Shown in pieces: positions 42,637 through 64,000 of a DNA stretch of 64,000 bases. This DNA comes from Anaerolineae bacterium (GTDB lineage Bacteria > Chloroflexota > Anaerolineae > Epilineales > Epilineaceae): contig JBCLES010000011.1 in NCBI GenBank assembly GCA_038913135.1, forward strand, positions 3,673-67,672. Direction: 5' to 3'. Both the position numbers and the translations under genes were made by a program. The first letter of the stretch is position 1. Each line of letters begins with the position of its first letter. Below the pieces are notes generated by a model. It saw only the letters and a program-made list of their open reading frames with translations, was not told the origin of the DNA and ran no database searches.

Positions 42637-42663
42637 CACTTGCTCCAATTCCACGGGTTGACG

Positions 42664-42693
42664 TGAGACGATTTGAGACAATTTGAGACGATG
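42664..42693. repeat. 10-bp tandem repeat x3
   Basis: TGAGACGATT TGAGACAATT TGAGACGATG. Confidence 0.75.
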
Positions 42694-42784
42694 TGTAAAG
42701 ATGAGGCGGGCCCGACCGTTGCCCAGGTTCGGGCCCGCCCTCCTGCACGTCGCGCCGCTGTGCGTATGCGTTCGTCGACGTCCG

Positions 42785-42810
42785 GCGCGAATGTATCGGT
42801 GGCCGAACCC
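42785..42810. repeat. 26-bp dispersed intergenic repeat, copy 2
   Basis: Identical to 724-749. Confidence 0.85.
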
Positions 42811-42828
42811 GACAGATTCAGCGTGGCG

Positions 42829-44901: not shown

Positions 44902-45100
44902 CGTCTCCTCCAGCGTCGGGCTCAGCACAGATCGCTCGTTCGCGATGCTCGGCCCGCAGTTGTACTTCAGGCTACTTTCAGAGCGACCACTCAGCATCGG
45001 GCAGGTTGGCATGGTGTTATCCGCCGAATGGCTTAGGGGCCGGCAGACCGCCGAACTCGACTGATGGCCCATGATCCGGCCTGGGCTATACTCGCCGGCC

Positions 45101-47471: not shown

Positions 47472-49429
47472 ATGCACGATTTCTCAAACGACACTCTTTT
47501 CGAGCACCTCATCGCCCTCCCGACGGCCGGCGAGCGGAGCCTGTTGCTGCGCCAGGAAGACGGAGGGCTCGACGCCGCCGGTGTCGAACGCCTCGCCGAG
47601 CGCCTCAAGGATCACGCCAACGCCTGCTTCCTGAAGAGCGTCGAGGAGTGCGACGAATTCGCCGAGTTGATCCTTGAGCTTGGGCGGATCGCCGAGGCTC
47701 CATTGGTCCACGCCACAGGCACTCGGATCAGCGCGTTAGTCGACTATGTGCGGACCAACGACGCGGCGGGAGCCCTGCGCAGATTCGACGAGGCGTCGGC
47801 AATTCACCTTGATCACGATGATCCGGTGGGCTGGGCGCTCGTCCAATCCCTTAGGATCATCCCACTCGCCGAGCTCGGCCGGCTCGACGAGGCGCTCGAG
47901 ATGCTGCGGGCCGCCGGCGACGACGGGGCGCGGGACGTCCCGAACACGCAGCAGACGAAGGGCACGATCCTGGTCAATCTGGGTCGGTCGCGCGAAGCGA
48001 TTGAGGTCTTGCTCGATGCCTTGGAGGAATCGAAACGGCTCGGGCAGACGTCGATTGGCGCTCAGCTCATCGCGAATCTCGGCCGAGCGCGTTTCGCTGT
48101 CGGCTTGTTCGCGCGCGCGCTTTCGGCCTACGAGCACGCCCATGATCTGTTCAGGAAGAACGCCGCCGCGATTTCGCATGAGCTCGGCGCGACGGAACGG
48201 GCCGTGGAGCTGATCGACGCGGTCGTTGACTTCGCCGCGAAGGAAATGATCGACCACCTCATGCTCGATGCCCTTAGGCTCCGCGCGGACATCGACCACG
48301 ACGCCGGCGAAATGGAGACCGCGCTCGCGTTCTACCTGAGGGCGATCGGCTGGTGCTCGAACGGGCTCGGCTCATCGAACATTCTTCTCGACTGGACTCA
48401 GACATCAGAGAGGGGCCGGTTCAGTCGGAGTCGGAAACCGATATGGGACTTGCACGATCGGAGTCGGACAAGGACAAGCGCGCGATCAGGCGGATCGAAC
48501 GACAAATCGGGGCGCTTCGGGATTCGCGGATCGTACGGAGCCTGGACTTTGTCGGCGACGGCGACGTTTGGTCGATGGAGGCACCGGATATCGGACCGTA
48601 TATCCCTCCGCGGACGGTGTTGCTGGAGTTCTTCCGCGTCGGCGACAGTTTCGTAGGTTTCGCGATCACAAGGGACGGAGCGTCCTCGGTTCGCCTGGAT
48701 ATGGACGAACGAAAAGTGCGAGAACTTTTACGCGCGTTGAACTTTAATTTCATGACGGCGCCACATGCCGATGCACGACACCTCGCGGATCTGACGGCGA
48801 GAGCGAACACCATCCTTGGGCAATTCCACGCGGGCTTGATCGCTCCCTTCTCGGACCAGATCGCCGCCGCCACCACCATCTTGGTGGTACCCCACGGCAA
48901 CCTTCACTACGTGTCGTTCCACGCGCTCCACGACGGCCGAACGTACCTCGCCGCCACCCACAACGTGAGCTATCTGCCGGCGGCGAGCCACCTCATCGCC
49001 ATCCGTTCACGTGCCGAGAAAACGGGAACGGCGACGGCCGCGCCGTTCGCCATGCTCGCGATCGGCCACGATTGCGGAGGGCGCCTGCCGAACGCCATCG
49101 AGGAGGCACGCGAGGTGGCGAGAATGTGGGGCGGAACGACATTGCTCAACTCGGCGGCGACCAGGGCGAGCTCGATTGTGGCCAGCCTCTGGAAGATCGA
49201 GGACCGCTGCGGAAGCGACTTCATGCGATGCTTCTATTCGGCACTCCGCGGCGGCCGGACGAAGGGCGAGGCCCTGAGCGCGACGTATCGCGAATTCATG
49301 GACGGTCGGGTCGGCGGCACCGATGAAGCGGGTAGTGCGCGCGAGAAATACGGCGATCGATACGTTCATCCGTACTACTGGGCCCCGTACATGTTGATCG
49401 GGGATCCGGGAATGCTCCGATCGATATAG
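47472..49429 (+). pseudogene. TPR + CHAT (caspase-like) protein, frameshifted and internally deleted
   Basis: TPR-like helices in 47472-48350; second frame has LVVPHGNLHYVSFHAL, IVASLWKIED, HPYYWAP but no HG or SAC catalytic segments. Confidence 0.75.
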
Positions 49430-49478
49430 GCGGGCGGGCGAAAGTGCGCGCATCACACATATGTCCCGGGGGGGGATC

Positions 49479-50682
49479 ATGAATACCGAGCCTTCGAATA
49501 CTGTCCAGCGCTTTATACCAAGGTTGATCGACTACATCCGACATTATCGGGTGATCGCAGTGCCGTTGATCGTGGTCCTGTTCATATGGTTGCTCTACTG
49601 GACGCTTGCTGAGAAGCGCGAGGATCCGTCGTATGTCGCGAATCAGATCATCGTGGCGGGGGACCCTGACGTCATCGATGAGGTCATCCAACGGGCATTG
49701 CCCGGAGCGATAAGGCTGAGCTCGATCGAGAGCGTGAAATCCTCCGATTGCGATTGCGATCTCGAGTTGGAGCCCATCGAGACGAGAGAGCCTCCGCTTG
49801 AAGATGCTGAATCAGCGACAACAACGCTTGAAGGAACGACTTCAACTCCCTTGCCTCCGGCGGTGGAGGAGTCAATTGACGATCCTTTTGAGCACCCGCT
49901 CAACTTCGCCATTCAGTTACTCGACGTTTCAAGCGTGGTATATGCCGAGGAATCGAGAGACGGAGCTAAGTCCGGTGGATCGACCTCGGTCGACAACACC
50001 GTGCGCGCGATCGGTGAAGTGTATGAGGCTGTCAACAGTATCAACGGGAAGCCAGGCGCTATACCTGCGGCTTTGGTCGCGGATCCGAACTACATCGTCA
50101 CGAGTTCTAAGAAGACCATGGATCCGAACGATGGTCCTGGCGGAATCGGTGCCCGCTTTCGTCGTAATACACAAGACTTCGAAGCTTCCTGCCCTATACG
50201 ATTCCGTCATCAGCGTCACCGGAACGCGGATCGACACTTCCACTAGGTCGTGCTTCGCGAACGCGGGTCAAGTCTCGGCGGCGGCAGGAGGAGACACCGC
50301 CTCTCCTTGTGCAATAGGTGTTGCCGCCGCTTGTCGTGATGCGAATGCCTCACGGACAGCGGAAGGTTGTGATAATGCGATCATCGCGCTCGTCAATCCA
50401 GCGTCCTTCATCGGCCTCCCCAACAGTGCTGAATTCTCTAGCGGATATGCTTTCTGGACCGGCACGTCGTTCGCGTCTCCTCTGGTTGCGGGTGGCATCG
50501 CCAGAGTCATGGAGAAGTATCCGGCAGCGGCGCGCACACCAGCCACCATCAGGCAGGTGGTCCATTGCGGGGCCATCGGCACGAGCAATCCCGGCCCTCT
50601 GCCTACGCCCGACATTAACACGCCGCTAGGGGCCGGCAGTATCGATTGGGCGGTTGCGCTCAGCACTCAATGCGCGCCCTGA
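49479..50682 (+). pseudogene. S8 subtilase remnant
   Basis: N-terminal TM and prodomain-like part, then another frame with GYAFWTGTSFASPLVAG; catalytic Asp/His motifs not seen. Confidence 0.65.
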
Positions 50683-50811: not shown

Positions 50812-52308
50812 TCACACCACCCGCCCCGCCCCATCCCGCCGCGGATCCCCACCGGCCTCCGCCTTCGCCCCACCTTCCGCCCAACGCACCGCGTTCGCGC
50901 CGCCGAAGTAGCCGCCTCTTTCGCGCCAAGCTTGGACGCGCCAACCCATCGATCTCAGCGAGTCGGGCACTCCGAGATCGTAGCCGGGTTCCAGGTGAAG
51001 GACGCCGTCCTCGAAGTGGACCCGTTGGTGGCCTACCGCCCGGGCCACGTCGGAACCGTCGACGATTAGGCGCGCAATCTGCGATAGCGCGGTTCGTATG
51101 GGGGCGGAGCCGCCGCTGCCGACGGCGACGAGGTCGCCCTCCGCACGCATCATCAGCGTCGGCGACATCATCGTCCCCAACGGCGCGCCTGCTGGGCCCG
51201 CGTGAAATCCGTCCGGGAAGAGATCCGCTTCGCCCAACATGTTGTTGAGCATGAGGCCAGTTCCCGGCACGAGGTAGCCCGCCGTCTCGCCCGCCGACGC
51301 CGTGATCGAGACCGCCATCCCGTTGGCATCGACTACGGAGACATGGGTGGTCGATCCGCGGCCAGCGGGCTCGGCCTCGCCGTTGACGGCCCGCCGCTCA
51401 CGCACCGCGGCGAGCGCCTCGGGCAGCAGGCGGGCGACAACATCGTGGATTTCGCGCTGATCGAACGTCGACAAGTCGCCCGACCAGCCGCCCACCGCCC
51501 CATTCACCGCCGCGATCACCACTCCCCAGCGATGAGCGTCTTCCGCCGTGCCGGGTGCAGACGGCGGTTCATGCTCCGAAATCGCGCTCCAAAGGCCGAG
51601 CAAGCGGGCTAGCATGATGCCGCCTCGCGACGGCGGCGGTGGGACCAGGATCTTCCACCTAGAGAAGTCGACTTCAATTGGCGGCGCCTCGCGCACCTTC
51701 AGTTCGGCTAGGTCGCGCGCCGTGAGCAGGCCTCCGTTCGCCGCTTGGTCCGCGACGATCCGCTCGGCGAGATCGCCCGAATACATCGATCCGAAGCCTT
51801 CGTCCCGAAAAGTACCGAGTAGGTCTGCGAGCGGGCCTAGATCAACGGCGCCCGGATCGTTCATATACGCGCCCGCCCCTCCGAAAAGGGCAGCGCACTC
51901 CGGGGTGTCGGTCATGATCGGCTCGAGCGCGCGCGAGATCGCGATGTGGCCCGGCGGGAAGATCGCGCCTGCTCGTGCTAGCGCTATCGCGGGCTCGATG
52001 ACGTCGGCGAGAGGCATCGACCCCCATCGACGGTGCATGTGAGCTAGGAGCGCGACCAATCCCGGCACTGCGACGCTGGCCCTGCCGACATGGAAGCGGA
52101 TCTGCGTTTCGCTGTATTGAAGGACTTTTTCCCGAAAGTCGAGTTCACCTGCCTTCAATCGCTCGGCCGGTGTGCGCTCGGCCCCCAAGCCCGGCATCGC
52201 GGCGATGGAGGCATCGATCGCATTCCCTCCGCCGGCAAGGATCTCCGCAGCGACGTCGGCCGTCGCCGGCGCGCCGGCAGCGACGGCGCCCTTCAAGCGG
52301 CGCTGCAT
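50812..52308 (-). CDS. ggt: Gamma-glutamyltransferase family protein
   Basis: GGNAIDA, SVAVPG, STTHVSVVD, LNNMLGE, MMSPT, GSGGS; short N-terminal segment seems missing. Confidence 0.88.
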   Translation of the reverse strand: MQRRLKGAVAAGAPATADVAAEILAGGGNAIDASIAAMPGLGAERTPAERLKAGELDFREKVLQYSETQIRFHVGRASVAVPGLVALLAHMHRRWGSMPLADVIEPAIALARAGAIFPPGHIAISRALEPIMTDTPECAALFGGAGAYMNDPGAVDLGPLADLLGTFRDEGFGSMYSGDLAERIVADQAANGGLLTARDLAELKVREAPPIEVDFSRWKILVPPPPSRGGIMLARLLGLWSAISEHEPPSAPGTAEDAHRWGVVIAAVNGAVGGWSGDLSTFDQREIHDVVARLLPEALAAVRERRAVNGEAEPAGRGSTTHVSVVDANGMAVSITASAGETAGYLVPGTGLMLNNMLGEADLFPDGFHAGPAGAPLGTMMSPTLMMRAEGDLVAVGSGGSAPIRTALSQIARLIVDGSDVARAVGHQRVHFEDGVLHLEPGYDLGVPDSLRSMGWRVQAWRERGGYFGGANAVRWAEGGAKAEAGGDPRRDGAGRVV

Positions 52309-52454
52309 GTTGTCGCGTATCTAAGCACGTCGAGTCTCGGTTGATTTGGGGCGGGTATGATCCCGACGCGTGTTACGACGAATCCGGCGAAACGACCCGA
52401 CGGATCGTACTGGAGGGTTCGATTCGACCAGCCTCACGAATGGTAGCCCCGCCG
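52127..52454. repeat. Left direct repeat of the DGR block (ggt 5' end + upstream)
   Basis: 52321-52454 matches 63867-64000 at 128/134; 52127-52196 and 52274-52292 match 63756-63837. Confidence 0.9.
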
Positions 52455-52509
52455 GCACCCACTGTGGCAGGGAAACAGCGAGATTCGGGACGAAGGGTCA
52501 TTTCACGCG

Positions 52510-53874
52510 TCATGGGGGTCGCTCGTCCCTCGACCCAAAGTGTTCTCCGCCACTTCGTTCGAGGTGCTTCTGCACCGATCGATAGAAGCTCGGCCGCCTG
52601 AAGTACATTCCATGAGCCGTGCCGAGGTCTGTCCCGGTAGGGTATCGAATGTCGATGGCGTCCTCGAACACCGGTGCCGCCATAAAGCTGAACACATCGG
52701 CCGGATCGTAGACATTAAGCCACGCGCCCACTCGGCCAGAGAGGCCGGCGACGCGCTGAGGGTGGCGGATGTCGGTGTTGCTGACCATGAACAGCTTCAT
52801 CTCTTCGAACTGTGCCACCTGCCCGCCGACCGATATCCACGCATCAACCGTTAGATCGGGCGCGAAGTACGTCAAGATGTCGTAGAAGATATTGCCGCCC
52901 ATCGAATGGGTCATGACGATCAACGGCTCGTCCGGCGCTGCTGCGCGGGCGTCCTCGATGGACGCGCGGAGGCGGAGCACGATCGGACCGGGGTCTTCAA
53001 AGGTTCCGCGCTGGTTCAGGTAGGCGAAAACATCTCCAAGGAAGTGGGCGGCGTATTCGTGGACGCGTCGGCGGCGGGCTTGGAGCAAGGTCATGCTCAG
53101 CGTACGGCCAAGACGCGAATGGGAGCGATCCAACAACTCCTTGACCTGCCTGTCGAGCGACGCGATCCAGCGCGGGGTGTACGAACTCTCGAAGCCGCCG
53201 TCGATGGCGACAGGGGCTTCGAGGTCAGGCGCGGCGGTCGAGGCGCGAAGGAGCGCCTCGTAGCGACTTCGAATCTGGTCACCGATCACTTCCTGCGCCT
53301 GCTTGTCATTCGTCAGGCGCTGGATCGAGGAGCGCAGATTCGAATCGTGCGCCGCCTCGTCGGCCGCCAGCAGCAAGAGCGCTTCACGCTCTCCGCGCCG
53401 GCGGGCGCGCGCGCTTTCTGTGGCCGTGGCATCTTCGGGGAGGCCGAGCGCCAGTTCCTCCATGATGATCGGTGAGAGCAGGAGATCGACGGCTTCGGGC
53501 AGGTTGGTTTGTGCCAGGCGAAGAAAGACCGGCGATGACCGGTCATCGTTGGCGACGGACTCGGTGCCGCCGGAGTCGAGGGCCAGGCCAGCGAGTGCCA
53601 GCCGCTCATCGGTGATGGGGAGCACGAACTCCTCGCTTGCGACACCGCCTTCGGCGCGTTCGTAGAAGCGCACGTCGGGCAGGGACCGCAGGCCCCACGC
53701 AAAGTCGACCCCGAGATCGCCCCAATATGGATCGTGGATGGCTGCTTTAGCCAGTCGGCCGCCGGAAAGTGGCTCGAGCAGGCAAGCTCGCAGGAGCCGC
53801 TCGCGGACGTGACGATCCGACTCGTAGCGCGGACCTCTCCGGATGTTGACGCCGTGGATGAAGACGAGCGGCAT
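52510..53874 (-). CDS. Alpha/beta-hydrolase-fold protein
   Basis: LVFIHGV, YWGDLG, FLGDVFAY, IVMTHSMGG, WLNVYDPAD, AHGMY (Ser-Asp-His pattern). Confidence 0.75.
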   Translation of the reverse strand: MPLVFIHGVNIRRGPRYESDRHVRERLLRACLLEPLSGGRLAKAAIHDPYWGDLGVDFAWGLRSLPDVRFYERAEGGVASEEFVLPITDERLALAGLALDSGGTESVANDDRSSPVFLRLAQTNLPEAVDLLLSPIIMEELALGLPEDATATESARARRRGEREALLLLAADEAAHDSNLRSSIQRLTNDKQAQEVIGDQIRSRYEALLRASTAAPDLEAPVAIDGGFESSYTPRWIASLDRQVKELLDRSHSRLGRTLSMTLLQARRRRVHEYAAHFLGDVFAYLNQRGTFEDPGPIVLRLRASIEDARAAAPDEPLIVMTHSMGGNIFYDILTYFAPDLTVDAWISVGGQVAQFEEMKLFMVSNTDIRHPQRVAGLSGRVGAWLNVYDPADVFSFMAAPVFEDAIDIRYPTGTDLGTAHGMYFRRPSFYRSVQKHLERSGGEHFGSRDERPP

Positions 53875-54075
53875 GATCGCGTTGCCTCCGCATAATGTCT
53901 TAAGGCCGGACGAGCACGGCGATGATACCTCACCGCCAGGACCAACATGCCCACCTCCGGCCTATCGATGGCCCTACCTGTGGGGTGCATGGTATCTTCC
54001 CGGTGGCCGGAGCGCTCCCCGCGCGCGCATGATGCTAGCCGGGCCGCACGCCAAGCCGATGCGGAGGTGTCCTGA

Positions 54076-57000
54076 GTGCCTGATCACTTCCTGAACGAAC
54101 GTGAACTGCGATGGGAGCGAAGCGAGACCCGCGCTCTGCACGACCTGCTGAAGTCGATGTACCCGCGCCAAGACGATGCGATCGAAGCGCTCCAGGCTCT
54201 CGGTTTCGCGTACCCGGAGGCAGACTTCGAATTTCATCCCAAGATGGATCGAAGCTGGCGCAAGATCATGACGGACTTGCACAGGCGGGCCAGGCTGATC
54301 CGCCTTATCGAGATCGCGTCGGCGGATGAGCGGCTGAGCCGATTCCACTACGAACTGCGGGTTCTTAGAGGTGGTGTCGCAGCCGAGCCGACTCCGGACC
54401 CAAGCTCCTCCGCGGACCTGGATTGGCGGGGCGCGCCAATTACGTCTGCCGGTGGTTTCGAGCGACTCTTGCGCGACGGCCGGTCGCTCGTTCCGACGAG
54501 CTTCTTGTCCGAGGGAGCGCGCGTGGCCGCGGCCGTCGCATGGATCGAGGCTAAGTTTCCGAACGATCACAGCTGCAAGGGATCGGGCTTCCTGGTGGGG
54601 CCGGATCTCCTGCTGACCAACCACCACGTGCTCCACGACGCGACGGCCGGCCAGGTGGCCGCTGGCGAAGTCGAGGCCCGCTTCGGCTATGAGGAAAGCG
54701 GTTATGGTTTGATGCCGCCTTGGCGTACCGTGGCGGGTCTTGTCGACACCATCCGGGGTGATGCAACGCACGATTGGGCGGTGATCCGCCTCGCGGAAGC
54801 GCCGGGCAATGAGTACCGGTGGATACCGCTGGCGCAGGATTCATTGATCGCTGTGGACGAGCCGGTGTACATCATCCAGCATCCGGGCGGGCGTCGGAAG
54901 ATGGTGTCGATCGATCCGGCCGGCGTGGTGCGCTTCTTAGACGACGACCGGATCCAGTACCTGACCGAGACCGAGGAAGGCTCCTCCGGCGCTCCGGTGT
55001 GCAATCGCTCATGGCAGGTTGTCGCCTTGCACCATCGCTGGGAGGATGTGAGTCACGGTGACGGTCAGGAAAAACGAAACCAAGGTATACCTATCGCCCG
55101 TGTCATCGAAGGACTTACGGCAGCGGGGATTGCGATCGGCGGAAACGCGGCTGATGCCGCGCCCGGTCTGCCTCCCAGCGCGGTGTCGCTGGAGAGCATC
55201 GCACGGCGCAAGGCGGCCGTGGAACCCAGCACCGAGCTGCCGAGCGCCCGCGAACCGATAGGTCATGGGCACGAAACCGAACAACTGCGGCGCTGTCTTG
55301 CTGAAAATATCGAGGCCGGCCGAGGCGGCTTCGTGGCCCTGTACGGCGGGCGCGGCTACGGGAAGTTCGCCTTGGCTCGGAGTGTCCTGGAGACATTGGC
55401 CGACGACGGCGCGACGGTGCTGGCCACGAGCTTCGGAAGCCCGCCGACGGTGGGAGAGTCGACGGCTTCAGTCGCGCTGCGCGAACGGTGGCCGCAGGCA
55501 TCGGATCGGGCGGGTTGGGCATGGCTCGATCTCGTGATGCAGGCTGAAGCCGCGATCGCTCAGAAAGGCCGCACGCCACCGTCGGAACATGATACCGACG
55601 GCGCCGCGCATCTGCGCGCCCTGCTGCGGGCTCTGGCCGCCGATGGCCCGGTGCTCCTGCTCCTGGACGAGTTGAGCAGGGCCGAGGGCCCGTCGTCGGA
55701 ATGGTGGCCGCGCTGCCTCCTTGACCTTGGAGAGCAGATGCGGAACGGCCTGCCCTGCAACGTGATCATGACATTACCGCCCCTTCCCTTCGACTGGGGG
55801 ACATGGATCGGCGAAATGCTTGAGCAGGTCGACGATCTGCTCCAACTGCGTGTAGACCTGGACCAGATCTCGGGTGAGGATGCCGAACGCTATCTCGCTC
55901 AGCGCCTCGACGGTGCCGTGGAAGGTATGGTGGCCGAGAACTTGTGTCGGTTGGCCGACGGTGTCCCAGCAGTGTTCGAGGAAATCGTCGATTGGAGTCT
56001 CGATGCCCGCGTCCCCGGTCCTGACGGCCGTCCTGTCGCCGCCCTCACCTGGGATGACCAGGAGATGATGTGGCGCGCAGCTCCGGGTACGGGGGATCTT
56101 GTTTTCGAGACGGCGCATGACAGTGTGCTGAAGGTGTTGGACGCCCTTGTTCCAGCAGAAGACGCCAGCGCCTGGGCGGCGGCGGCCGGGATGCTGAACC
56201 ACCGCGATCATCCGTCTCCCGCGGCACTCCGCCAAGAGGTGAAGTTCATCCTGGGCTGCGCTGCACTCGAAGGGCGGAGCTTCACAGTGGAGGTCGTCGC
56301 CGCGGTTCTGGGTCTCGATGCCGAACTGCTCATCGACGGGCTGGACGAGTATCTGGTTCGGAATGACGAGACCGGCCTCTTGGAGGACGATGGGTTCACG
56401 GAATTGTCGCCGGCGCTAGCGACCGCGCCGCTCCCCGTTCCGCCCAGCGGCTCTGGCGCGTCGCGCTACCTGCATCACTATCGTTTCCGCTGGGCATGGC
56501 AGTGGCGGACGTGCGCGAAGTACTTTCTCGACGACACGGGGAGGGCCCAATTGATCGGCCCTCTCACGAGTGCGATCGAGGGGCTGGTTCCGACCATGCA
56601 TCGCTCCGCGTTCGCGCCCGCGCTGCGTGGCCTGTTCCAGCTTGGAAGCGAACTCGAAGCGCGTGGCGCCATTCGAACCGACGTCGAGAACTATTGGCAT
56701 CTCCGGGCCGACGAGTACCGGAGCCTGGGCCGCCTCGGCGAACTCCAGTCACCTGCGCTTGCGACCCTCCAATGGCATGTCGAAGTGCTCGATCAGCGTG
56801 ACGATCGGCGTACGCCCGATCACGACCGGCTCCTTCTTCAACTACGCCTCACGTTGGCAGAGGCTATTTTGCATGCCGTCGCGGACGGTGAGCTGGACGA
56901 CGCGCGCCTCGCCGCCGCGGAGGCGGAGCGCGCAGCCACACTAGCGATTACCCTCGGAAGCAAGCAGAGCGAGGAACAGGCCCGGACCCTCCACCAAGCC

Positions 57001-58308
57001 GCCGCGATGGCCGATGCGCTGTTGCGCACGACGACGTCCGACGACGCCCGCGAGTCGCTGTCGAACCTGCTCGCCGCCGGTCTGGGCAAAGCCGCCGACG
57101 CGAACCAATTGGACCCGAGTGCCCTGGCCGCCGACTCCCGCCAACCACTGGCGCAAGCCATGGTAACCATCCTCGATCACCGCGAGATCGATCTGGATGC
57201 CCGCATCGCGGCCAGTCTGACCCTCGGCCGCATCGGCGACCCGCGCTTCGAGCGCCGCGACGGCCCTGAAGGCGCGTACATTTCCCCACCCCTCGTCGCC
57301 ATACCCGCGGGCAGCTATCCCATCGGCTCTTCGGCCGACCCGGACAGCCTCTGGTTCGATCCGAAGGGCTTTGCAGATGAACGTGAAGCCCACGAAGTCG
57401 AGCTTGATGCCTTCGGAATCGGGCGCTACCCAGTGACGAATGCCGAGTGGGCGTGCTTCATGGCGGCGGATGGCTACGTTGATGAGCGTTGGTGGACGAA
57501 TCCGGTGGCGCGTGCGTGGTTGGCGGGAGATCCGAAACAGCAAGAGCTCGGCCGCGAGGGGTGGCGAAATTGGTGGCGCTCGGCCCAAGAGCAGGTCAAT
57601 CTCGAAGCGTGGTTGCAGAGCGAAGCCGCGTCCAGGCAATGGTCAGCATACCAGCTGCGAGACCGCCGCGGGATCGCGCGGCTCGAAGCTCGCCGCTTGG
57701 AAGAAGTCGTGCATGGATGGTATCCCGATAGACCTCCACACGAACCATCCGAATGGCGAAATCCGAAGTTCAATAATCCCTCCCAGCCCGTGGTCGGCGT
57801 TTCATGGTTCGAGGCATTGGCGTACTCCAATTGGCTCTCGGCACAGACAGGGCTGGAGTTCCGTCTGCCATCGGAGGTCCAATGGGAGGCAGCAGCCCGG
57901 GGAACGGCCGGCCGGCGCTTTGCCTTCGGCGACGTCTTCGATCAAGCACTCGCCAATACGGCGGAGACGGAGCTCGAGCGGACAACGCCGGTAGGCGCGT
58001 ACTCCGGCGGCTCGACGCCGGAAGGAGTGCACGACTTGTGCGGCAATGTGTGGGAATGGACGCGATCGCTTTGGGGCACGAACGGCGAGCAGCCGGACTT
58101 CACGTACCGGTACGTCGCCGACGACGGTCGCGAGAAGGAAGAGGCGCCAGCGCAGCGCCTGCGGGTGTTGCGGGGCGGGTCTTGGATCGATACAGAGCTC
58201 GGCGCCCGCGCGGCGGTCCGCTACGGGAATTTCCCGACCGAACGGTTCACGAGCAGCGGGTTTCGGCTGGTTTGCGCGTCCCCCATCTCGCTGGCCACTG
58301 AGCGCTGA
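54076..58308 (+). CDS. DGR target 1: EAD-like + trypsin protease + P-loop NTPase + FGE-sulfatase/C-type-lectin fold
   Basis: GSGFLVGPDLLLTNHHV, DWAVIRL, TEEGSSGAP; GGRGYGKF and LLLLDE; YPVTNAEW, PVVGVSWFEA, RLPSEVQWE, GNVWEW, RVLRGGSW...GFRLV. Confidence 0.92.
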   Translation: MPDHFLNERELRWERSETRALHDLLKSMYPRQDDAIEALQALGFAYPEADFEFHPKMDRSWRKIMTDLHRRARLIRLIEIASADERLSRFHYELRVLRGGVAAEPTPDPSSSADLDWRGAPITSAGGFERLLRDGRSLVPTSFLSEGARVAAAVAWIEAKFPNDHSCKGSGFLVGPDLLLTNHHVLHDATAGQVAAGEVEARFGYEESGYGLMPPWRTVAGLVDTIRGDATHDWAVIRLAEAPGNEYRWIPLAQDSLIAVDEPVYIIQHPGGRRKMVSIDPAGVVRFLDDDRIQYLTETEEGSSGAPVCNRSWQVVALHHRWEDVSHGDGQEKRNQGIPIARVIEGLTAAGIAIGGNAADAAPGLPPSAVSLESIARRKAAVEPSTELPSAREPIGHGHETEQLRRCLAENIEAGRGGFVALYGGRGYGKFALARSVLETLADDGATVLATSFGSPPTVGESTASVALRERWPQASDRAGWAWLDLVMQAEAAIAQKGRTPPSEHDTDGAAHLRALLRALAADGPVLLLLDELSRAEGPSSEWWPRCLLDLGEQMRNGLPCNVIMTLPPLPFDWGTWIGEMLEQVDDLLQLRVDLDQISGEDAERYLAQRLDGAVEGMVAENLCRLADGVPAVFEEIVDWSLDARVPGPDGRPVAALTWDDQEMMWRAAPGTGDLVFETAHDSVLKVLDALVPAEDASAWAAAAGMLNHRDHPSPAALRQEVKFILGCAALEGRSFTVEVVAAVLGLDAELLIDGLDEYLVRNDETGLLEDDGFTELSPALATAPLPVPPSGSGASRYLHHYRFRWAWQWRTCAKYFLDDTGRAQLIGPLTSAIEGLVPTMHRSAFAPALRGLFQLGSELEARGAIRTDVENYWHLRADEYRSLGRLGELQSPALATLQWHVEVLDQRDDRRTPDHDRLLLQLRLTLAEAILHAVADGELDDARLAAAEAERAATLAITLGSKQSEEQARTLHQAAAMADALLRTTTSDDARESLSNLLAAGLGKAADANQLDPSALAADSRQPLAQAMVTILDHREIDLDARIAASLTLGRIGDPRFERRDGPEGAYISPPLVAIPAGSYPIGSSADPDSLWFDPKGFADEREAHEVELDAFGIGRYPVTNAEWACFMAADGYVDERWWTNPVARAWLAGDPKQQELGREGWRNWWRSAQEQVNLEAWLQSEAASRQWSAYQLRDRRGIARLEARRLEEVVHGWYPDRPPHEPSEWRNPKFNNPSQPVVGVSWFEALAYSNWLSAQTGLEFRLPSEVQWEAAARGTAGRRFAFGDVFDQALANTAETELERTTPVGAYSGGSTPEGVHDLCGNVWEWTRSLWGTNGEQPDFTYRYVADDGREKEEAPAQRLRVLRGGSWIDTELGARAAVRYGNFPTERFTSSGFRLVCASPISLATER
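58157..58289 (+). repeat. DGR variable region VR1
   Basis: Inverted copy of 60093-60225; mismatches concentrated at A-involving sites in codon positions 1-2. Confidence 0.88.
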
Positions 58309-58323
58309 TGCCGCGTAGCGGCA
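58309..58323 (+). other. Post-VR hairpin (candidate DGR target-recognition stem-loop)
   Basis: TGCCGC-GTA-GCGGCA immediately after the target 1 stop codon. Confidence 0.6.
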
Positions 58324-58391
58324 GGCAGTTCACGCCGTTGGCATCTCGACCAAGGTTGGTGACCACGATCCACGCTGATCGGTGCGGGTCG

Positions 58392-59501
58392 TCAGCTCTC
58401 GTCCGGACTTTCGACCCCGGCGATAGACTTCGGCTCGGCCCTTGGTCGACCGGACAATGGCCGGCCAAGAATGTGATTGCGCAGGCCCCACGTGTCGGCG
58501 TAGCTGACGTGGGCGAGCCAGCCCTGGACGCTCGCGTCGAACTCGGCGAAGGTGATCTGGCCGGCGCAGTACTCGCTCCAGTGAAGGCGGAGGCGGCGGT
58601 CGAAGTTCACGATCTTGCGCGCCTTAATCCGTCGGTGGGACGGGTAGACGATGAAGCCTAGCCACGGGGTGCCGGTGGTGACCGGCGCGACCTGGGCGTT
58701 ATGGTCGTGGATGGTCAGACGCAGGTCCGCAAGGCGCTGGACGATGTCCGACTTCCATCGCCAGAGTTTGCGCTTGTCGTCGGAGAAAAGCGCAAGGTCG
58801 TCGACGTAGCGCACGTAGGCGGAGCATCGGAGATGGCGGACGATGAAGTGATCCAGCGGATCGAGATAGCAATTGGACCAGAACTGGCTCGTCAAGTTGC
58901 CGATGGGAAGGCCGCGCGGACGCTCGGCGGCCATCAGGTCGTCGCCCGGGAACCAGACCATCTCGTATTCGTCGGCCAGGACGCCACGGCCGCTCTCGAG
59001 GATGCGTCCGACCAAGTCCATGATGTCGTCTTCCGGTATGGCGCGCGCCAGGAGATCCGTCAGGATGGCGTGATCGATCGAAGGGAAGTGGCGCACGACG
59101 TCCATGCGCAGGGCGAAGCGATAGCGCCGCGCGTGGTCCTGCAACCGGTCCACGGCGCGGTGGGTGCCTTTGCCGCGGCGGTTGGCGTAGCTGTGCGGCA
59201 GGAAGCGGCGTTCGAAGCGGGGTTCGATGATGTTGCAGAGCGCGTGGTGCACCACCCGGTCACGGAAGGGTGCGGCGCTGATCTTGCGGACCTTGGGCTC
59301 GTGGATGTGAAAGTGCACGTAGTCGCCCGGCGTGTACACGTGCGTATACAACTCGGATTCGAGCTCGATGAGTCGATCGGTGAGCCGGTGCTCGAAAGTG
59401 GCCGCCGCGCCCATGCCTCGCTTTCCACGCGCCGCCTTGCGCCAGGCCTCGAGCAGGTTGTCCCAGCCGACAAGACGCGCGTAGGCTTCACTGTGAGACA
59501 A
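58392..59501 (-). CDS. DGR-type reverse transcriptase
   Basis: [65 protein letters not shown]; no maturase or endonuclease domain. Confidence 0.95.
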
Positions 59502-59512
59502 GGAGTCGCCCC

Positions 59513-59854
59513 TTGGCCGACGACATGGTCATCTTCAGCCGTACATTCGACATGCTCGACTGGCTGCTGCCCAAAGGCGAGAGCTTTCCAAGGACCTATC
59601 GGAACACGGTCACGCAGCGGATGATGGATTCCGCGCTCGACTTCCACGAGGAGCTGAACGCGGCACGCAACCAGGGTGGGAGCACGCGGCAGCGGCATCT
59701 CCGCAGCGCAAGCGCCCACCTCGATTCGTTGCGACTATACCTGCGCTTGGCGCAGCGTTGGGGCTGGATCACGCCGGGCCAGCACCGACACGCCAGCGGC
59801 ATGCTCGCCGAAATCGGGCGCCTGCTCGGCGGCTGGCAACGCGCCAAAGAGTGA
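59513..59854 (+). CDS. avd: DGR accessory variability determinant Avd (four-helix bundle)
   Basis: 113 aa, basic: [35 protein letters not shown]; AAGGAG RBS. Confidence 0.92.
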
Positions 59855-60092
59855 GGCGCCTCGCGGCCCGTGGGCCAGGGAGGCGCCTCGCTTGAATATG
59901 TGCCCGGCGGTGGCCCCGGAAGGCCGACCGCGCGGACGGGACGAGCCTGCGCCATCTCGATACCTTCGCCTCGGCCCGCGAACCGTGGTCGGCGGGCAAT
60001 GCCGGAAGCCTTACCCTTGCCTGCGTCCCAGGACGCTCCAGGGGGCCGGCTCGCAACGGGCGGCATTTCACCCGCGCCTTCGAAGGGGGACA
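59853..60092 (-). ncRNA. Structured region resembling the TR-to-RT spacer of DGR RNA
   Basis: GC-rich stems (GCCCGC...GCGGGC; two GAGGCGCCTC palindromes at 59853-59862 and 59880-59889) between a VR-like repeat and the RT; role inferred from position and recalled similarity. Confidence 0.45.
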
Positions 60093-63000
60093 GAGGTGTG
60101 GGACGCGCAAACCAGCCGAAACCCGTCGTACGTGAACCGTACGGCAGGTAAACCCCCGCTGCGGACCGCCGCGCGGGCGCCGAGCCCTGAAGAGATCCAA
60201 GACCCGCCCCGCAACACCCGCAGGCAGCCGGCGTCAGCGCCGACCTCCTCGCGCCCGTCGGCGGAATCGTACGGGTAAGCGAAGTCGGGTGCCTGGGAAT
60301 CTCGCCCCCAAAGGCTTAGCGTCCACTCCCAGACGTTGCCTGTCATGTCGACCAGGCCCTCGGGCGTCCGGCCGGCAGGAAAGACGTCGATCGGCGTGGT
60401 GCCTCGAATGTGCGTCTTATACGTGTTGCAGGCAGCCGCATCAAAGTCCTTCCCGTATGCGAAGTCTCGACCCTTCAGACCGCGACAAGCGGCTTCCCAC
60501 TCGACTTCGGTCGGCAGACGATAGTTCCGGCCGATCTTGGCCGAAAGCCAGGCGCAGTACGCTCGCGCTTCGTACCACGACACGCCGACCACGGGTTGGG
60601 CCGGACTGTTGTAGCGCGGATTGGTCCACAAATGCGGTATGGAGTATTGCTCGGATGGATACCAGTCATCGAGCTGGGCTTCGAGAGCTTCCTCGTCGAG
60701 GCGGCGGAACCAATCGACCCAATCATAATGTGTCTCCGGCAGCCCGGCATTGGCCTCGCGCCACCTCCCGAATCCGTCATCATCCTTCGGGTAACGCGCC
60801 CAATCGTCTCGCTGCCACTGCTTAGCCGGCTCCACGATGGTCGGGTCGCCGAGCCGCCAGGCCTTCGCATCGTCCGTTTCCCACCAGCCCTCATCGTCGT
60901 AGCCGCCGTCTTCCACAAAGCAGCGATACTCGGCGTTCGTGATGGGGAAGCGGCCGATTTCGAAGGGGGCGATGCCCACCGTTCCGACCGGGCGCTTGTC
61001 CGCCCAACCATCTTCGGTACCGATCGGGTACCGTCCGCTAGGGATCGGGACCATCGGCGTGACAAGGTGGCTGAGTCGGCCGTCCGCGGCGCGCACGGTC
61101 TCAAAGCGGTCGTCACCGAGCTCGCCCAGGGCGTTGGCGGCGTCGATGCGGGCCCGTAGATCCGCGTGTTCGTCGTCGCAGCGTTCTCTGAGCAGGCGTC
61201 GGAGTTCGGACGCCGTCGCCTCTGGAACTTCAGCGCCAGGCTCAACGGTACAGCGCGCGGCAAGCGGCAGGTTGGTTTCGGCAAGCGCCATGACGAAGGC
61301 GTCTGCATTGCTCGTCATGGCCGCGGCGAGGCGCATCGTGACTTCCCAGCCGGTCTGTTCGAGGCCTGGCAGCGGGTCTCCGTGCGCCAGACCCGCCATC
61401 GTGTGCGCCAGCGTCTCCGCGACCTTGTCCTTGTGCCATTCGCTGCACGCCAGCTGCGGCTCGGGCTCCGCGGCCAAGACGCGCCCGGCGAAGAACTCCT
61501 GCATAAGTTGATGGTAGAAGCGCAGCTGCTCTTGCCCGCTCGTGGAGTCGAAGGATAAGTCGAGCACGCCGATCGAGTACCCCGCCCGCAGGATTTGCTC
61601 GCGCTGCGCGTCGTCGAAGCCTTCACCCAACAGAGCCGGCGCAGCGTCATAATCGACGACAATCTGCTGGCCGGCGCCGATGGTCGTCTGCATTCCATGG
61701 GCCAATCGCGCCAGCGCACCGACCAAAGGCCCGCGAGTCGGAAGTGTGTGGCCCCGCATCTGCGCCAAGCGTGCTCGGTCCAATGGGTGGAGGAGGTCAT
61801 TGGAGAAGAGTTACTGGTTGTCCCTCATGATCTCGCGCAGCATCGATTGCCGCACGAAGCCTGCGAACAACGCCGCGCGCCCCACTGGAACTTCGCCATC
61901 GTCGCCGACCTGGTCGACCAAAAGCCTGAGGTAGTACGGCGTCCGATAGATGTCGATCTGCCCACTTTCGCGAATAGCATTCCAGAGCTTGGAAGCCAAC
62001 TCAGGTCGGTAAACGTCGAGGAAGTTCCGGATCTGTTCGTCGACCAGGCGCTTGACCAGTACGTGCGGTACGCGCAGCGCATCCGATGACAGGAACGTAC
62101 TGTAATCGAGGCTCCGGCAAGAGATGATGACGCGGATAAGTGGGTGATCGCGATACAGTGTATGCAGGTCGTCGCGCCAGGCCTTGACGCGATCCTCGTA
62201 GCTCGGCCGCGCGCCACCGTAGGGTATCTCGTTGAGCGCATCGAGCAGCAGGATCATGGGTTGGTCGTCCAACAGCGTCTCGAGCGGCGGCATCTTTGTA
62301 TGAGCAGCCTTCCAACTTTGGGCCAGCCAGTCCTTTGGCTTGACTGCCGCATCCCGATGCTCCGCCAGTGACAGATAGAACGGCAGAAGAGCGGCCGCGC
62401 CGCCTTCTACAGGGCCTGCCGCCGCGGCGTCCGGATCGGCGTCAGCCCAGCCTAGAGCAAGACACGCCAGTTCGATCTCGATGCGGCGCAAGAGCGTTGT
62501 CTTGCCGGCGCCGGGTTCGCCCAGGAGCACGAAGACGGGATTTTGCGCTCCCGCCGCGCGTACGACTTGGCGCAGATCGTTATAGTCGCGCTCCTGTTCG
62601 CTCCAGCGCATCTGGGCGCTCTCGCCCTTGTCGACAAACAGTCCCAGGCGCGTGAAGCGGCGCAAGTCCTCGCCACGACCGAGGAGATGCGGCTCCCGCC
62701 AGTTAGCGATCCGCCGCAGTCGATACTGTTCCGCGGTGCCTGGGTCGCTCGTGCGGAGGGCTTGCGATTCGTCATCGGACAGCTCGATCATCGGACCATC
62801 CGATCGTACGCGGATCAGGAGCGCTTCTAGTTCGTCGGGGCCGAGGAGCGCGTCGATTGTGCCGCGCGGTGGGCGCTTGCGTATCGCAGACAGATCGGCG
62901 TGGTATGCCGTGACCGCCGGGTCGTTCAGCACGTGCGTGACCAGATCGTTCATCCGGCCGCCGCGGCTCAAGAGGTTGATCATGTGCCGCCAGACCTCGC

Positions 63001-63232
63001 GCGCGGCGCCATCCCAATTGATCTCATATTCGCGAACGCCGATCTCGCTGGTGATCGCTTGGATCTCACGAACGTTGGGATAGGCACTGGCCAGCAGCCC
63101 ATGCAGCTCCAAGGCTGCCGGATTCGCCCAATCGAGCGGCGCCTCATCGAGGAAAGTTGAAGCGCCGGCCGGTGTCGGACGTACGCCAGTGCCTTTGCCG
63201 CTGCTGTATCGAGTGTCGCTGCGATCCGCCAT
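60068..63232 (-). pseudogene. DGR target 2: EAD-like + NACHT NTPase + FGE/C-type-lectin fold, split by one in-frame TAA
   Basis: ORFs 61811-63232 and 60068-61783 share a frame (..RDNQ*LFSND..); GEPGAGKTT, LLLDALNE, ISCR, FYHQLMQEFFA, GNVWEW, RVLRGGSW. Confidence 0.88.
60093..60225 (-). repeat. DGR variable region VR2
   Basis: 110/126 identical to VR1 over the core; encodes RVLRGGSWISSGLGARAAVRSGGLPAVRFTYDGFRLV. Confidence 0.88.
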
Positions 63233-63530: not shown

Positions 63531-63755
63531 CAGCGGCGCTGGCGGCTGCGTCGTGAACGCGGTGGCGGGGGCGCCGAGGCACGTGACGGAGCGGAGACGG
63601 GGCTGATGCGCGGGTGCAGGCGGCCGCGAGGCGGCGCGTTGGGGGGCGAACGGGGTGTGCGGGAGGCTGGCGCGAGGCGCGGTGGAGCGGCGTGGGGCCG
63701 CCGGAGGTGGTTGAAGGGCGGGCGGCGGGGTGCGATTGAAATTACTATTCCACTG

Positions 63756-64000
63756 TTTTCCGAAAGTCGAGTTCACCTGCCGTCAATCGCTCGGTCGGTG
63801 TGCACTTCGCCCCCAAGCCCGGCAGCGACGGCGCCCTCCGTTGGACAGGTTGTTACCGGACGAGCCCTAAGCACGTCGAGTCTCGGTTGATCAGGGGCGG
63901 GCATGATCCCGACGCGTGTTACGACGAATCCGGCGAAACGACCCGACGGATCGTATTGGAGGGTTCGATTCGACTAGCCTCACGAATGGTAGCCCCGTCG
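63756..64000. repeat. Right direct repeat of the DGR block (may extend past the window)
   Basis: Diverged copy of 52127-52454 with an 83-bp deletion between two CCGGCA hexamers. Confidence 0.9.

Follow-up and report, generated by a model that had tools for sequence, protein, structure and literature searches.

What is the block of five genes near the right-hand end of this window (the whole stretch of 64,000 nucleotides that was analysed), and does it still work? Over ~11.3 kb the genes encode a hydrolase, a trypsin sensor, a reverse transcriptase (RT), Avd and a NACHT-FGE sensor, and the RT and Avd form a DGR core that once hypermutated the C-terminal lectin-fold repeats of the two NTPase sensors. 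It is likely that this cassette is a discrete, transferable unit and that it belongs with the conflict (abortive-defence) systems of the class "EAD - STAND NTPase - FGS lectin + DGR". That is one joint judgement, which also takes in the mechanism proposed below for intact copies and the partial decay of the present copy. The cassette is laid out as follows.

52510-53874, minus strand: alpha/beta-hydrolase, 454 aa; S324/D390 or D393/H421; helical insert at ~residues 87-288; conserved R289-G290
53875-54075, no strand: divergent intergenic region, 200 bp, between the hydrolase and trypsin-sensor genes
54076-58308, plus strand: DGR target 1, the trypsin sensor, 1410 aa; EAD1, trypsin, STAND-like NTPase (deviant Walker A), helical region, FGE/C-type lectin
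54076-54375, plus strand: EAD1 of target 1, ~residues 1-100
54580-55029, plus strand: Trypsin_2 domain, residues 169-318; triad H184, D233, S304
55258-55734, plus strand: NTPase core of target 1, AAA_16, residues 395-553; Walker A GGRGYGKF, Walker B LLLLDEL
57292-58272, plus strand: FGE-sulfatase (C-type lectin fold) domain of target 1, 157.4 bits; also matches TvpA, 2y3c
58157-58289, plus strand: VR1
58392-59501, minus strand: DGR reverse transcriptase, 369 aa; aligned with its counterpart in the orthologous cassette L009 at 69.6% aa identity
59513-59854, plus strand: Avd accessory protein of 113 aa, with the RT in divergent orientation; bAvd 67.2 bits, DivGenRetAVD 78.6 bits (cut-off 80)
59855-60092, minus strand: conserved non-coding stretch, directly downstream of TR in the orthologous cassette
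60093-60225, minus strand: VR2 with a TR-type 3' end (VR2/TR fusion)
60068-63232, minus strand: DGR target 2, the NACHT sensor, one frame of 1054 codons with TAA at codon 474; EAD1, NACHT, helical region, FGE
60110-61060, minus strand: FGE-sulfatase (C-type lectin fold) domain of target 2, 159.8 bits
61811-61813, minus strand: in-frame TAA stop, splitting the frame 63232-60068; N-terminal part 63232-61811(-)
62027-62533, minus strand: NACHT NTPase, residues 234-402; Walker A GEPGAGKTT
62921-63112, minus strand: EAD1 of target 2, residues 41-104 matched by Pfam

The original prediction described two DGR targets with similar, EAD-like helical N-termini, one with an intact trypsin triad and a degenerate Walker A (GYGKF) and the other with a canonical NACHT, and this description is borne out throughout. 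Both targets have C-terminal FGE/C-type-lectin variable repeats. The Trypsin_2 match in target 1 scores 80.3 bits, and H184, D233 and S304 (GSSGAP) are unchanged in 4/4 orthologues. The deviant Walker A is kept in the orthologues as GARGYGKF and GPRGYGKL (GYGK[F/L]). Because this motif is non-canonical and the L009 trypsin sensor lacks the second acidic Walker B residue, the NTPase of the trypsin sensor may not hydrolyse NTP, as far as its motifs indicate. The NACHT match in target 2 reaches 31.9 bits (cut-off 26.7), and the NCBIfam antiphage EruA NACHT model gives a weak match (39.5 bits, cut-off 1000).

The first 130 aa of the two sensors share 26% identity over 96 aa (BLASTP, E 5e-9), and with orthologues added the EAD1 regions align with an hhalign probability of 98.65% (E 4.8e-16, 94 columns). 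Pfam EAD1 (PF19955) is the top match for both, with 33.6 bits for the NACHT protein, over the 24.2 cut-off, and 17.4 bits (E 0.0063) for the trypsin protein, under it. Judged from these alignments, the N-termini are homologous and both are EAD1. The source genome is a 190-contig metagenome bin, 76.9% complete, and its sole EAD1 candidates are these two sensors, the Pfam model detecting the NACHT protein and its homologue lying next door.

The Ser-Asp-His hydrolase was predicted to flank the sensors in divergent orientation, as it does here; in L009 the arrangement with the trypsin sensor is likewise divergent, with a 55-bp spacer. It belongs to a large, uncharacterised family, mostly actinobacterial or proteobacterial, in which S324 (HSMGG) is present in 239/239 aligned members, D390 in 236, D393 in 238 and H421 in 236. 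R289 is found in 232/239 members and G290 in 194/239, and together they make up the single conserved R-G, the other conserved x-G being [LF]-G. The hydrolase model has a confident core flanked by low-confidence loops (70-85, 100-113 and 221-262), and its fold likeness to minimal lipases, the ground for the lipid hydrolysis suggested in the original prediction, is weak. Members are usually caspase-linked: a caspase-type neighbour cluster occurs in 67/80 loci, L061 adds one to give at least 68/80, and Peptidase_C14 was confirmed in 5/5 tested members of that cluster. EAD1-trypsin neighbours are seen in two of the 80 loci, L009 and L010. The hydrolase is a putative protease-activated effector zymogen. 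The cassette departs from the regular pairings set out in the relevant part of PMC7159879, which are Trypco-trypsin and hydrolase-caspase (Kaur et al., 2020).

Co-occurrence of the hydrolase with such genes elsewhere, which the original prediction had made a point of, was found. The cassette of L009 (genome G001) reads NACHT sensor - TR - Avd - RT - trypsin sensor - hydrolase; similarity to the window ends exactly at the two end genes, and the flanks are unrelated. The cassette is present in 2/35 genomes of the order. Cassette components at 63-71% identity (P0002, P0122 and P0139) each come from an entry with a longest contig of 10,165 bp, which probably holds a third copy. In the window the cassette lies between imperfect direct repeats.

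52124-52518, no strand: left copy; the 5' end of ggt and its upstream region, ending in the last codons and stop of the hydrolase
63752-64000, no strand: right, degenerate copy, extending ~65 nt past the window end

The paired segments are 89% (52124-52199 and 63752-63827) and 96% (52321-52454 and 63867-64000) identical, and homology stops at ~52518. The right flank resembles a defence island, with a SNF2 helicase with a NOV_C domain, Schlafen/AlbA_2, DUF1156 methylase-type fragments and DUF5131. To the left of the cassette lie overlapping ORF pairs (TPR/CHAT, 47472-49429; S8, 49461-50682).

How would an intact copy act? The variable lectin domain would bind an invader molecule, the NTPase module would oligomerise and the EAD1 domains would cluster. 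The NACHT sensor, which has no effector, would borrow its neighbour's trypsin through EAD1-EAD1 contact, a step that we infer by analogy; EADs are described as coupling components through homotypic contact in the part of PMC7159879 concerned. The trypsin sensor could also fire in cis. Activated trypsin would cut the hydrolase zymogen in the flexible loops around the helical insert, again by analogy, with R289|G290 as a candidate site, and the freed minimal lipase-like core would kill or arrest the cell. Among solved structures the trypsin domain stands closest to Glu-specific endopeptidases, so cleavage after Arg is not favoured.

The window copy itself looks partly decayed: its NACHT sensor is cut by the TAA and its TR is lost. 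Both kinds of damage had been overlooked in the original prediction. The orthologues P0138, P0139 and L009 are unbroken at the TAA position, without an indel. VR1 and VR2 are 86% alike, and the orthologous TR has A at 13/16 of their mismatch columns; in the orthologue's own VRs, mismatches fall on TR adenines in 16/16 and 15/16 cases. A separate template repeat is absent from the window and from the assembled genome. In L009 a distance of 319 nt separates VR2 from TR, its direct repeat; the same amount is missing in the window, and the VR2/TR junction is a clean chimera within the repeat's invariant 3' stretch. With the template lost via this fusion, diversification would have stopped. The non-coding stretch beside VR2 is identical to the orthologue at 207/249 aligned bases (83.1%, against 74.5% for the RT gene) and has predicted stems with 4 compensatory pairs, counted in two sequences only; the DGR RNA probably includes it. 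Both the trypsin sensor and the hydrolase are intact.

The TAA and the TR loss are known at assembly level and may be assembly errors in such a fragmented bin, and a fully functional cassette, with the TAA a consensus error and the fusion an assembler collapse, has an appreciable if lesser chance of being the truth. Two 134-nt direct repeats ~320 nt apart, with long identical stretches and VRs that are heterogeneous in the population, could collapse; the missing length is exactly the L009 VR2-TR spacing, and the overlapping ORF pairs to the left could signal indel errors. A clean chimera junction is, however, equally expected from real homologous recombination. Moreover, a near-identical assembly exists (P0121, 99% in target 1), from which an intact NACHT-FGE gene should have appeared, yet the search for long relatives of its C-terminal half gave none above 72% identity. 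Nor do the two assemblies differ in VR1, in keeping with a dead DGR. Partial decay is the reading that we retain.

Cooperation between the sensors can also be questioned. They could be independent single-protein systems that share a DGR, with EAD1 serving other partners or self-association only and the NACHT sensor signalling without its neighbour's trypsin. More than one NTPase-FGS system, differing in NTPase and N-terminus, is often present in the same organism, which the text of PMC8195603 on this point reads as diversification and not cooperation; the trypsin sensor unites sensor, switch and effector in one chain, and the low identity of the two EAD1 domains fits the same view. We think this unlikely: no further EAD1 candidate is seen in the assembled genome with which the NACHT sensor, lacking an effector, could pair; the two sensors are kept together in L009/G001 and, it appears, on the contig of 10,165 bp; and the pertinent section of PMC10907252 takes the published analogue, in which two sensors and a trypsin protein carry EAD8, as a case of recruitment. 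Less probable again is a role outside phage defence, in which a filamentous bacterium would use the cassette as a device for cell death or signalling, of a self/non-self or developmental kind (e.g., kin discrimination or regulated lysis in filaments), and the lectin would read a cellular or environmental ligand. The ligands of STAND-linked FGS domains are called "not yet experimentally characterized" in a passage of PMC10907252, and neither the hydrolase nor the FGE half of target 2 has a PADLOC model. The defence-island-like right flank and the patchy, cassette-like distribution speak against it, and NACHT and protease-effector modules of these families are reported, in the portion of PMC12642450 used here, to defend other hosts against phage. 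That the hydrolase is an unrelated neighbour, a housekeeping esterase, is scarcely credible. No part of it resembles EAD1 (hhalign probability 0.1-0.2%), its Pfam match is weak and under threshold, and NCBIfam has no family for it, but it lies inside a block conserved between two genomes with otherwise unrelated flanks, is single copy in the genome, and at least 70/80 loci of its family show a link to protease genes.

Preferring a cooperating defence cassette, how does it compare with known systems? The STAND NTPase-FGS (C-type lectin) conflict systems linked to DGRs (Kaur, Burroughs, Iyer and Aravind, eLife 2021; PMC8195603) have, as described there, an N-terminal EAD or effector, a STAND NTPase and a C-terminal FGS, with EAD1 and trypsin among the N-termini and an RT and a four-helix accessory gene close by. 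The window differs in joining EAD1 and trypsin on one sensor and in including an alpha/beta-hydrolase, which the passages on those systems compared here do not mention. The Thiohalocapsa PB-PSB1 DGR 6 and clade 5D DGR loci (Doré et al., PNAS 2024; PMC10907252), in the account that concerns them, have two targets per DGR, each with an EAD at the N-terminus, a STAND NTPase (nSTAND1 or NACHT) in the middle and a single CLec/FGE, and a trypsin-like peptidase that also bears this EAD and for which recruitment by homotypic contact is proposed. The adaptor there is EAD8 and not EAD1, the trypsin sits on a separate WD40 protein whereas that of the window is fused to one of the two sensors, and the word "hydrolase" occurs 0 times in PMC10907252. 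Bacterial NACHT/Avs antiviral STAND proteins share the tripartite plan of effector or adaptor, NTPase and sensor, and the canonical NACHT Walker A; in the window, by contrast, a DGR-diversified lectin fold takes the place of TPR or other repeats as the sensor, the effector would act in trans, and the copy has a premature stop.

For the hydrolase, the closest parallel is LcHydrolase/LcCaspase, a protease-activated alpha/beta-hydrolase zymogen (Evans et al., bioRxiv 2025; PMC12642450), and an "alpha/beta hydrolase-CASPASE pairing" is named in the corresponding lines of PMC7159879. In the published description, as in the window, a stand-alone alpha/beta-hydrolase of lipase-like fold lies beside a protease fused to sensors, and a removable middle stands between a small N-terminal piece and the C-terminal core, which has ~165-180 aa and a conserved R-G at its start. 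The partner in the window is trypsin and not caspase, and the middle part is ~215 aa of helices versus ~44 aa. Compared by description, LcHydrolase has ~295 aa and two R|G sites, against 380-450 aa and one conserved R-G in the window family.

The suggestion that this exact combination may be undescribed was overstated, since all of the cassette logic is already in print in the relevant parts of these sources: two-target EAD1/EAD8-STAND-FGS-DGR systems with a trypsin effector (Kaur 2020/2021; Doré 2024; PMC8195603, PMC10907252) and protease-paired, protease-activated alpha/beta-hydrolase zymogens (Evans 2025; PMC7159879, PMC12642450). What stands is the hydrolase-trypsin pairing within a DGR cassette, the sole new element found against the literature text compared. 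The cassette is best read as bacterial suicide immunity of a kind already known, in a rarer arrangement.

Gene calls and domain searches place five genes inside 52510-63232:

52510-53874, minus strand: alpha/beta-hydrolase, 454 aa
54076-58308, plus strand: target 1 (trypsin sensor), 1410 aa, with Trypsin_2 at 169-318 (80.3 bits), AAA_16 at 395-553 and FGE-sulfatase at 1073-1399 (157.4 bits)
58392-59501, minus strand: reverse transcriptase (RT)
59513-59854, plus strand: Avd (bAvd, 67.2 bits)
63232 to 60068, minus strand: target 2 (NACHT sensor), a single frame with EAD1, NACHT (31.9 bits, cut-off 26.7) and FGE-sulfatase (159.8 bits)

This five-gene cassette moves as a unit. Locus L009 carries it in the order NACHT sensor, template repeat (TR), Avd, RT, trypsin sensor and hydrolase, which is the mirror image of the window, and a genome of the same family as the window's, G001, has a cassette with the identical ORF series. 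Protein identity between window and L009 is 53-58% for the NACHT sensor, 67% for Avd, 70% for RT, 45% for the trypsin sensor and 49-51% for the hydrolase. The flanks of the L009/G001 cassette (12 kb on the left and 4.6 kb on the right) show no likeness to the window or its continuation at E <= 1e-10, and among 35 genomes of the order the full-length hydrolase is present only in G001 and the window's own genome. Homologues of the hydrolase (P0002), target 1 (P0122) and target 2 (P0139) are probably also co-located, the sole basis being that the same 10,165-bp longest-contig figure is attached to each. In the window an imperfect direct repeat of ~390 bp flanks the cassette on both sides (52124-52518 and 63752 to ~64065, 89-96% identity), with no integrase or transposase gene between the two copies. 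Flanking direct repeats were searched for around the G001 cassette and none were found, and an insertion-point (empty-site) search in 30 relatives gave only short weak DNA matches, no relative being close enough to inform.

The left repeat copy consists of the 5' end of ggt (gamma-glutamyltransferase, 50812-52308, minus) together with the DNA upstream of it. The right copy, which extends ~65 nt past the window end, is degenerate and has lost an internal segment. The right flank resembles a defence island, with an SNF2 helicase with NOV_C, Schlafen/AlbA_2, DUF1156 fragments and DUF5131. Here, at G000:C11:66500-75874 (locus L008), lie a 1172-aa SNF2-type helicase with NOV_C, a Schlafen/AlbA_2-HATPase_c_4 protein, a 486-aa ORF that matches a fragment of DUF1156, a DUF5131 protein and another ORF whose DUF1156 is complete; the layout of the DUF1156 fragment and ORF suggests a methylase gene split by an inserted gene pair. 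To the left of ggt, a TPR ORF (47472-48656) and a CHAT (caspase-like) ORF (48353-49429) overlap in different frames and adjoin a further overlapping pair (49461-50246 and 49798-50682), one with a Peptidase_S8 match; the overlaps within 47472-50682 may reflect frameshifts in protease genes or indels of the assembly. Further upstream (40598-45108) are NosD-like and nitrous-oxide-reductase-like genes (nos_propeller, COX2), an ordinary metabolic context.

Effector-associated domains (EADs) are described as coupling adaptors that act via homotypic contact (Kaur 2020, PMC7159879), and the original prediction held that the two sensors begin with related, EAD-like domains. The N-termini are homologous by BLASTP (26% identity over 96 aa, E 5e-9), and a profile comparison of the two (hhalign, three and four orthologues per side) gives 98.65% with E 4.8e-16 over 94 columns. 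Pfam EAD1 (PF19955) is the top match for both, target 2 scoring 33.6 bits (33.7 in the genome scan), above the curated cut-off of 24.2, and target 1 alone 17.4 bits, under it. Scanning the assembled genome, which is 76.9% complete, with Pfam EAD1 found only the domain of target 2, so that the two sensors are each other's only visible EAD1 partners. An EAD1-NACHT-FGE protein adjoins an EAD1-trypsin-NTPase-FGE protein in line with the "EAD principle" (Kaur 2020/2021), and L009 has the same pair. Modelled as a complex, the two EAD1 domains (residues 1-105 of target 1 and 20-125 of target 2) scored 0.01, a control-free value that speaks neither for nor against contact.

Target 1 was aligned with P0121 (99% identity, from another assembly), the 64% orthologue P0122 and the 45% orthologue of L009. 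The trypsin domain is of S1 type (PF13365) and its triad is intact as claimed, H184, D233 and S304 being invariant in 4/4 sequences. The deviation of its Walker A motif (GYGKF) is likewise real, but it had been read as degeneration; since the motif is conserved across the orthologues as G-x-R-G-Y-G-K-[F/L], it is a family trait and not decay. Walker B reads LLDEL in the window and VLDGL in L009, and to judge from these motifs NTP hydrolysis by this NTPase is doubtful. The closest solved relatives of the trypsin domain are V8/Spl-type endopeptidases, which are Glu-specific; an Arg-specific S1 pocket, considered because of a Glu six residues before S304, was dropped on account of these relatives. 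Between P0121 and the window protein there are 11 differences, confined to residues 92-211 (window 54349-54708), a stretch made up of the EAD1-trypsin linker and the first part of the trypsin domain; the remaining ~1200 residues, variable repeat included, are identical. Local recombination and selection are both possible sources of this clustering.

The NACHT of target 2 is canonical, as predicted, passing the PF05729 cut-off and carrying a Walker A (GEPGAGKTT) that fits GxxxxGK[ST]. In the sequence as assembled, one TAA in frame (61811-61813, codon 474 of 1054) breaks the NACHT-FGE gene, a stop that the original prediction did not mention. Two homologues of target 2, P0138 (72% identity) and P0139 (70%), and the 1051-aa protein of L009 read through this site without an indel, uninterrupted orthologues measuring 1051-1068 aa. 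A wider set of 615 long relatives (1001-2855 aa, E <= 0.001) exists; among the 120 matches listed, none exceeds 72% identity, and N-termini are of TIR, EAD, trypsin or cyclase type. The TAA is probably common to the assembly that holds P0121, because that near-identical neighbour gene exists and yet no relative of target 2 above 72% accompanies it.

Both sensors were said to be targets of a diversity-generating retroelement (DGR), and rightly, since both FGE domains end in DGR variable repeats. These repeats, VR1 (58157-58289) and VR2 (60093-60225), form a 133-nt inverted repeat, 86% alike, inside FGE-sulfatase domains that match TvpA (2y3c) by profile. The machinery is recognizable from RVT_1 (57.4 bits), DivGenRetAVD (78.6 bits, slightly under the cut-off of 80) and a PADLOC RT match (1.4e-46) besides bAvd. 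PADLOC has no model for Avd or the FGE half of target 2, and gave generic RT and protease matches only. Avd and RT (58392-59854) are divergent and lie 11 bp apart, an unusual layout that is also found in L009; as the TR is, or was, located past Avd on the strand of the RT, Avd is antisense, between TR and RT. In L009, VR2 (3298-3431) is followed by the TR (3617-3750), 319 nt later on the same strand, and VR mismatches there fall on TR adenines at 16/16 and 15/16 positions. Likewise, 13/16 of the columns at which VR1 and VR2 of the window differ are TR adenines in L009, a record of past A-directed diversification. VR1 is identical in the window and in P0121's assembly.

A third copy of the repeat, which would be the TR, is absent from the 64-kb window and from the assembled genome. 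Where did the template go? The 3' end of the window's VR2 is of TR type, and the sequence past it, from 60092 down to 59840, aligns with the post-TR and not the post-VR2 sequence of L009; over this stretch 207/249 bases (83.1%) are identical, compared with 74.5% in the RT gene and 66.3% in the hydrolase gene. In its variable part VR2 does not resemble the TR and has A at only 4 of the 16 columns that separate it from VR1. The simplest reading is that the template was lost when recombination between VR2 and TR, which are direct repeats, deleted ~320 nt. Alternatively, an assembler may have collapsed the same two direct repeats into one. Whether by deletion or by collapse, the window sequence as given is without a template. 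As sequenced, the window cassette is in decay.

The non-coding DNA that follows the orthologue's TR (59855-60092, minus; L009:3751-4000) is the best-conserved of the cassette. Several stems are predicted in it, with 4 compensatory pairs, from only two sequences; it is probably a structured part of the DGR RNA, and an Rfam scan of 58250-60300 at E <= 1 returned no family. Elsewhere in the window's genome, contigs C56, C65 and C169 (loci L003-L007) match VR1 in its invariant 5' part over 24-45 nt (82-96% identity), which suggests more FGE-type DGR targets or repeats.

The claim that a Ser-Asp-His hydrolase flanks the sensors holds well: in 239 aligned family members the triad residues are nearly invariant (S324 of HSMGG 239/239, D390 236/239, D393 238/239, H421 236/239). 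The family is unnamed and large: a search at E <= 0.001 gives 2250 cluster representatives, of which 632 reach E <= 1e-30, and members are mostly of 380-450 aa; the best 150 representatives listed are all high-scoring and span ~290-470 aa. Its Pfam match is weak and sub-threshold (Hydrolase_4, 19.4 bits, cut-off 27), there is no NCBIfam family or PADLOC model for it, and a PDB sequence search with its profile gave chance-level matches only (E 0.27 or worse). Its nearest clusters in the Protein Atlas are unnamed or generic alpha/beta-hydrolases; some proteobacterial clusters of 292-329 aa have Lipase_3/PGAP1/LCAT on a minority of members, which we take as a lead only. The AlphaFold (AF2) model (pLDDT 76.9, pTM 0.79) has a confident core of residues 1-60 and ~290-450, broken by a helical insert that is flanked by low-confidence loops (70-85, 100-113 and 221-262). 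In Foldseek the model resembles minimal lipases, among them Bacillus LipA, only weakly (E ~1e-3, TM ~0.5 on the target). An EAD1-like region in the helical insert was ruled out (hhalign probability 0.1-0.2%). Two arginines are strongly conserved, R268 in 236/239 members and R289 in 232/239, the latter followed by G290 in 194/239. This is the single conserved R-G of the family, the first boundary being [LF]-G (G in 218/239) and not R-G.

Does the hydrolase keep similar company elsewhere? A survey with one genome per species gave 165 pattern matches and 114 confirmed relatives, from which 80 loci were kept; neighbours were clustered from stop-to-stop ORFs of >= 120 aa by BLASTP with single linkage. 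The original prediction would have been undermined had the hydrolase not co-occurred with such genes, and this objection fails, because the hydrolase lies beside protease genes across the loci. In 67/80 loci it is followed by a same-strand protein of ~390-430 aa, which is Peptidase_C14 (caspase) in 5/5 members tested. At L061 a different caspase gene is directly downstream, followed by an NB-ARC-TPR gene, and upstream is a DGR with NACHT-FGE targets. Apart from L061, L009 and L010, ten loci lack the caspase cluster, several of them on short contigs, and five neighbour ORFs tested from four of these ten included no protease. Of the window's domains, trypsin was found at 4 loci (L009-L012), FGE at 2, Avd at 2 and RT at 3 (one weak). 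Neighbours of EAD1-trypsin type are found at L009 and at L010, where IS-type genes separate the hydrolase from an EAD1-trypsin and a STAND-EAD1-trypsin protein 3-9 kb upstream. The usual partner of the hydrolase is thus a caspase, and a trypsin/EAD1 partner is rare; in the window the hydrolase adjoins the divergent trypsin sensor, a sensor-linked protease.

A third gene follows hydrolase and caspase in 59/80 loci (L013, L019, L053 and 56 others) and is an uncharacterised partner of the pair. In 3 compact members tested, its core of ~380-480 aa matched no Pfam family; what is added at the C-terminus differs between loci (pentapeptide repeats, trypsin, a CATASP-containing stretch).

Much of this architecture has been described. 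In the STAND NTPase-FGS combination, N-terminal EAD1, EAD2, EAD7, EAD8 or effectors including trypsin are reported, often in two or more copies with different NTPases, and an RT and a four-helix protein are frequently linked to it (Kaur 2021, PMC8195603); the same order of N-terminal EAD or effector, STAND NTPase and C-terminal FGS, with a DGR nearby, is seen here. One DGR serving two nSTAND1-EAD8-CLec targets, together with an EAD8-trypsin protein, has been described, and clade 5D DGRs are commonly found with two STAND-CLec targets (Doré 2024, PMC10907252). A role as bacterial antigen receptors has been proposed for DGR-diversified STAND sensors, none of them tested according to Doré 2024. 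Trypsin is said to pair with Trypco1/2, and caspase "always" with a neighbouring alpha/beta-hydrolase (Kaur 2020, PMC7159879). A protease-gated hydrolase zymogen with a caspase partner has recently been demonstrated; FGE sensors are named there for Pepco-linked proteases and DGRs for EACC1-linked ones, neither for the hydrolase (Evans 2025, PMC12642450). In that zymogen, LcHydrolase of Lysobacter capsici AZ78, two conserved R|G sites are described as bounding a removable middle fragment, whereas the window's family has one conserved R-G and its member here a trypsin instead of a caspase partner. The word "hydrolase" does not occur in the text of PMC10907252. In full-text literature searches and in passages of PMC7159879, PMC8195603, PMC10907252 and PMC12642450, no hydrolase-trypsin pairing was found in print, and no other relevant paper emerged.

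The original prediction envisaged a sensor pair, linked through EAD contacts, that triggers proteolysis or lipid hydrolysis. This is broadly sound but largely restates published models (Kaur 2020/2021; Doré 2024; Evans 2025), and its new elements are modest: trypsin in place of caspase as the partner of this hydrolase family, EAD1 and trypsin fused on one of two DGR-diversified sensors, and a five-gene cassette that moves as a unit. The observed domain content, conserved active sites, adaptor homology, cassette unity and family-wide hydrolase-protease linkage offer the parts of a candidate pathway. The lectin domains would bind ligand, the NTPase would drive oligomerisation and the effector-less NACHT sensor would recruit the trypsin sensor via EAD1; the trypsin might then cleave the hydrolase around its helical insert, with R289|G290 as a candidate site, and the freed lipase-like core could kill the cell. 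Three features point against this mechanism: the NTPase motifs of the trypsin sensor are deviant, the hydrolase family has one R-G where two would be expected, and the protease has V8-like, Glu-specific relatives. We suggest only tentatively, and with more doubt than confidence, that intact copies, that of L009/G001 for example, form a self-contained and horizontally mobile "inflammasome with hypervariable receptors", in which two DGR-mutated lectin sensors with different NTPase switches act through EAD1 on one trypsin, and this on a lipase-like hydrolase zymogen licensed by excising a ~215-aa helical plug.

The window copy is a natural example of system death, with VR/TR recombination removing the template and a nonsense mutation removing one sensor. 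Some 11 kb hold sensors, switch, adaptor, protease, putative death effector and the machinery for mutagenesis; with one or more orthologues intact, the unit is a compact candidate for reconstitution. The logic of the protease-gated hydrolase zymogen may extend from a caspase to a trypsin partner. If true, trypsin with this hydrolase family and a DGR-diversified lectin sensor would be a pairing not yet connected in print, and the adaptive-like immunity proposed for filamentous bacteria would become testable with five genes.
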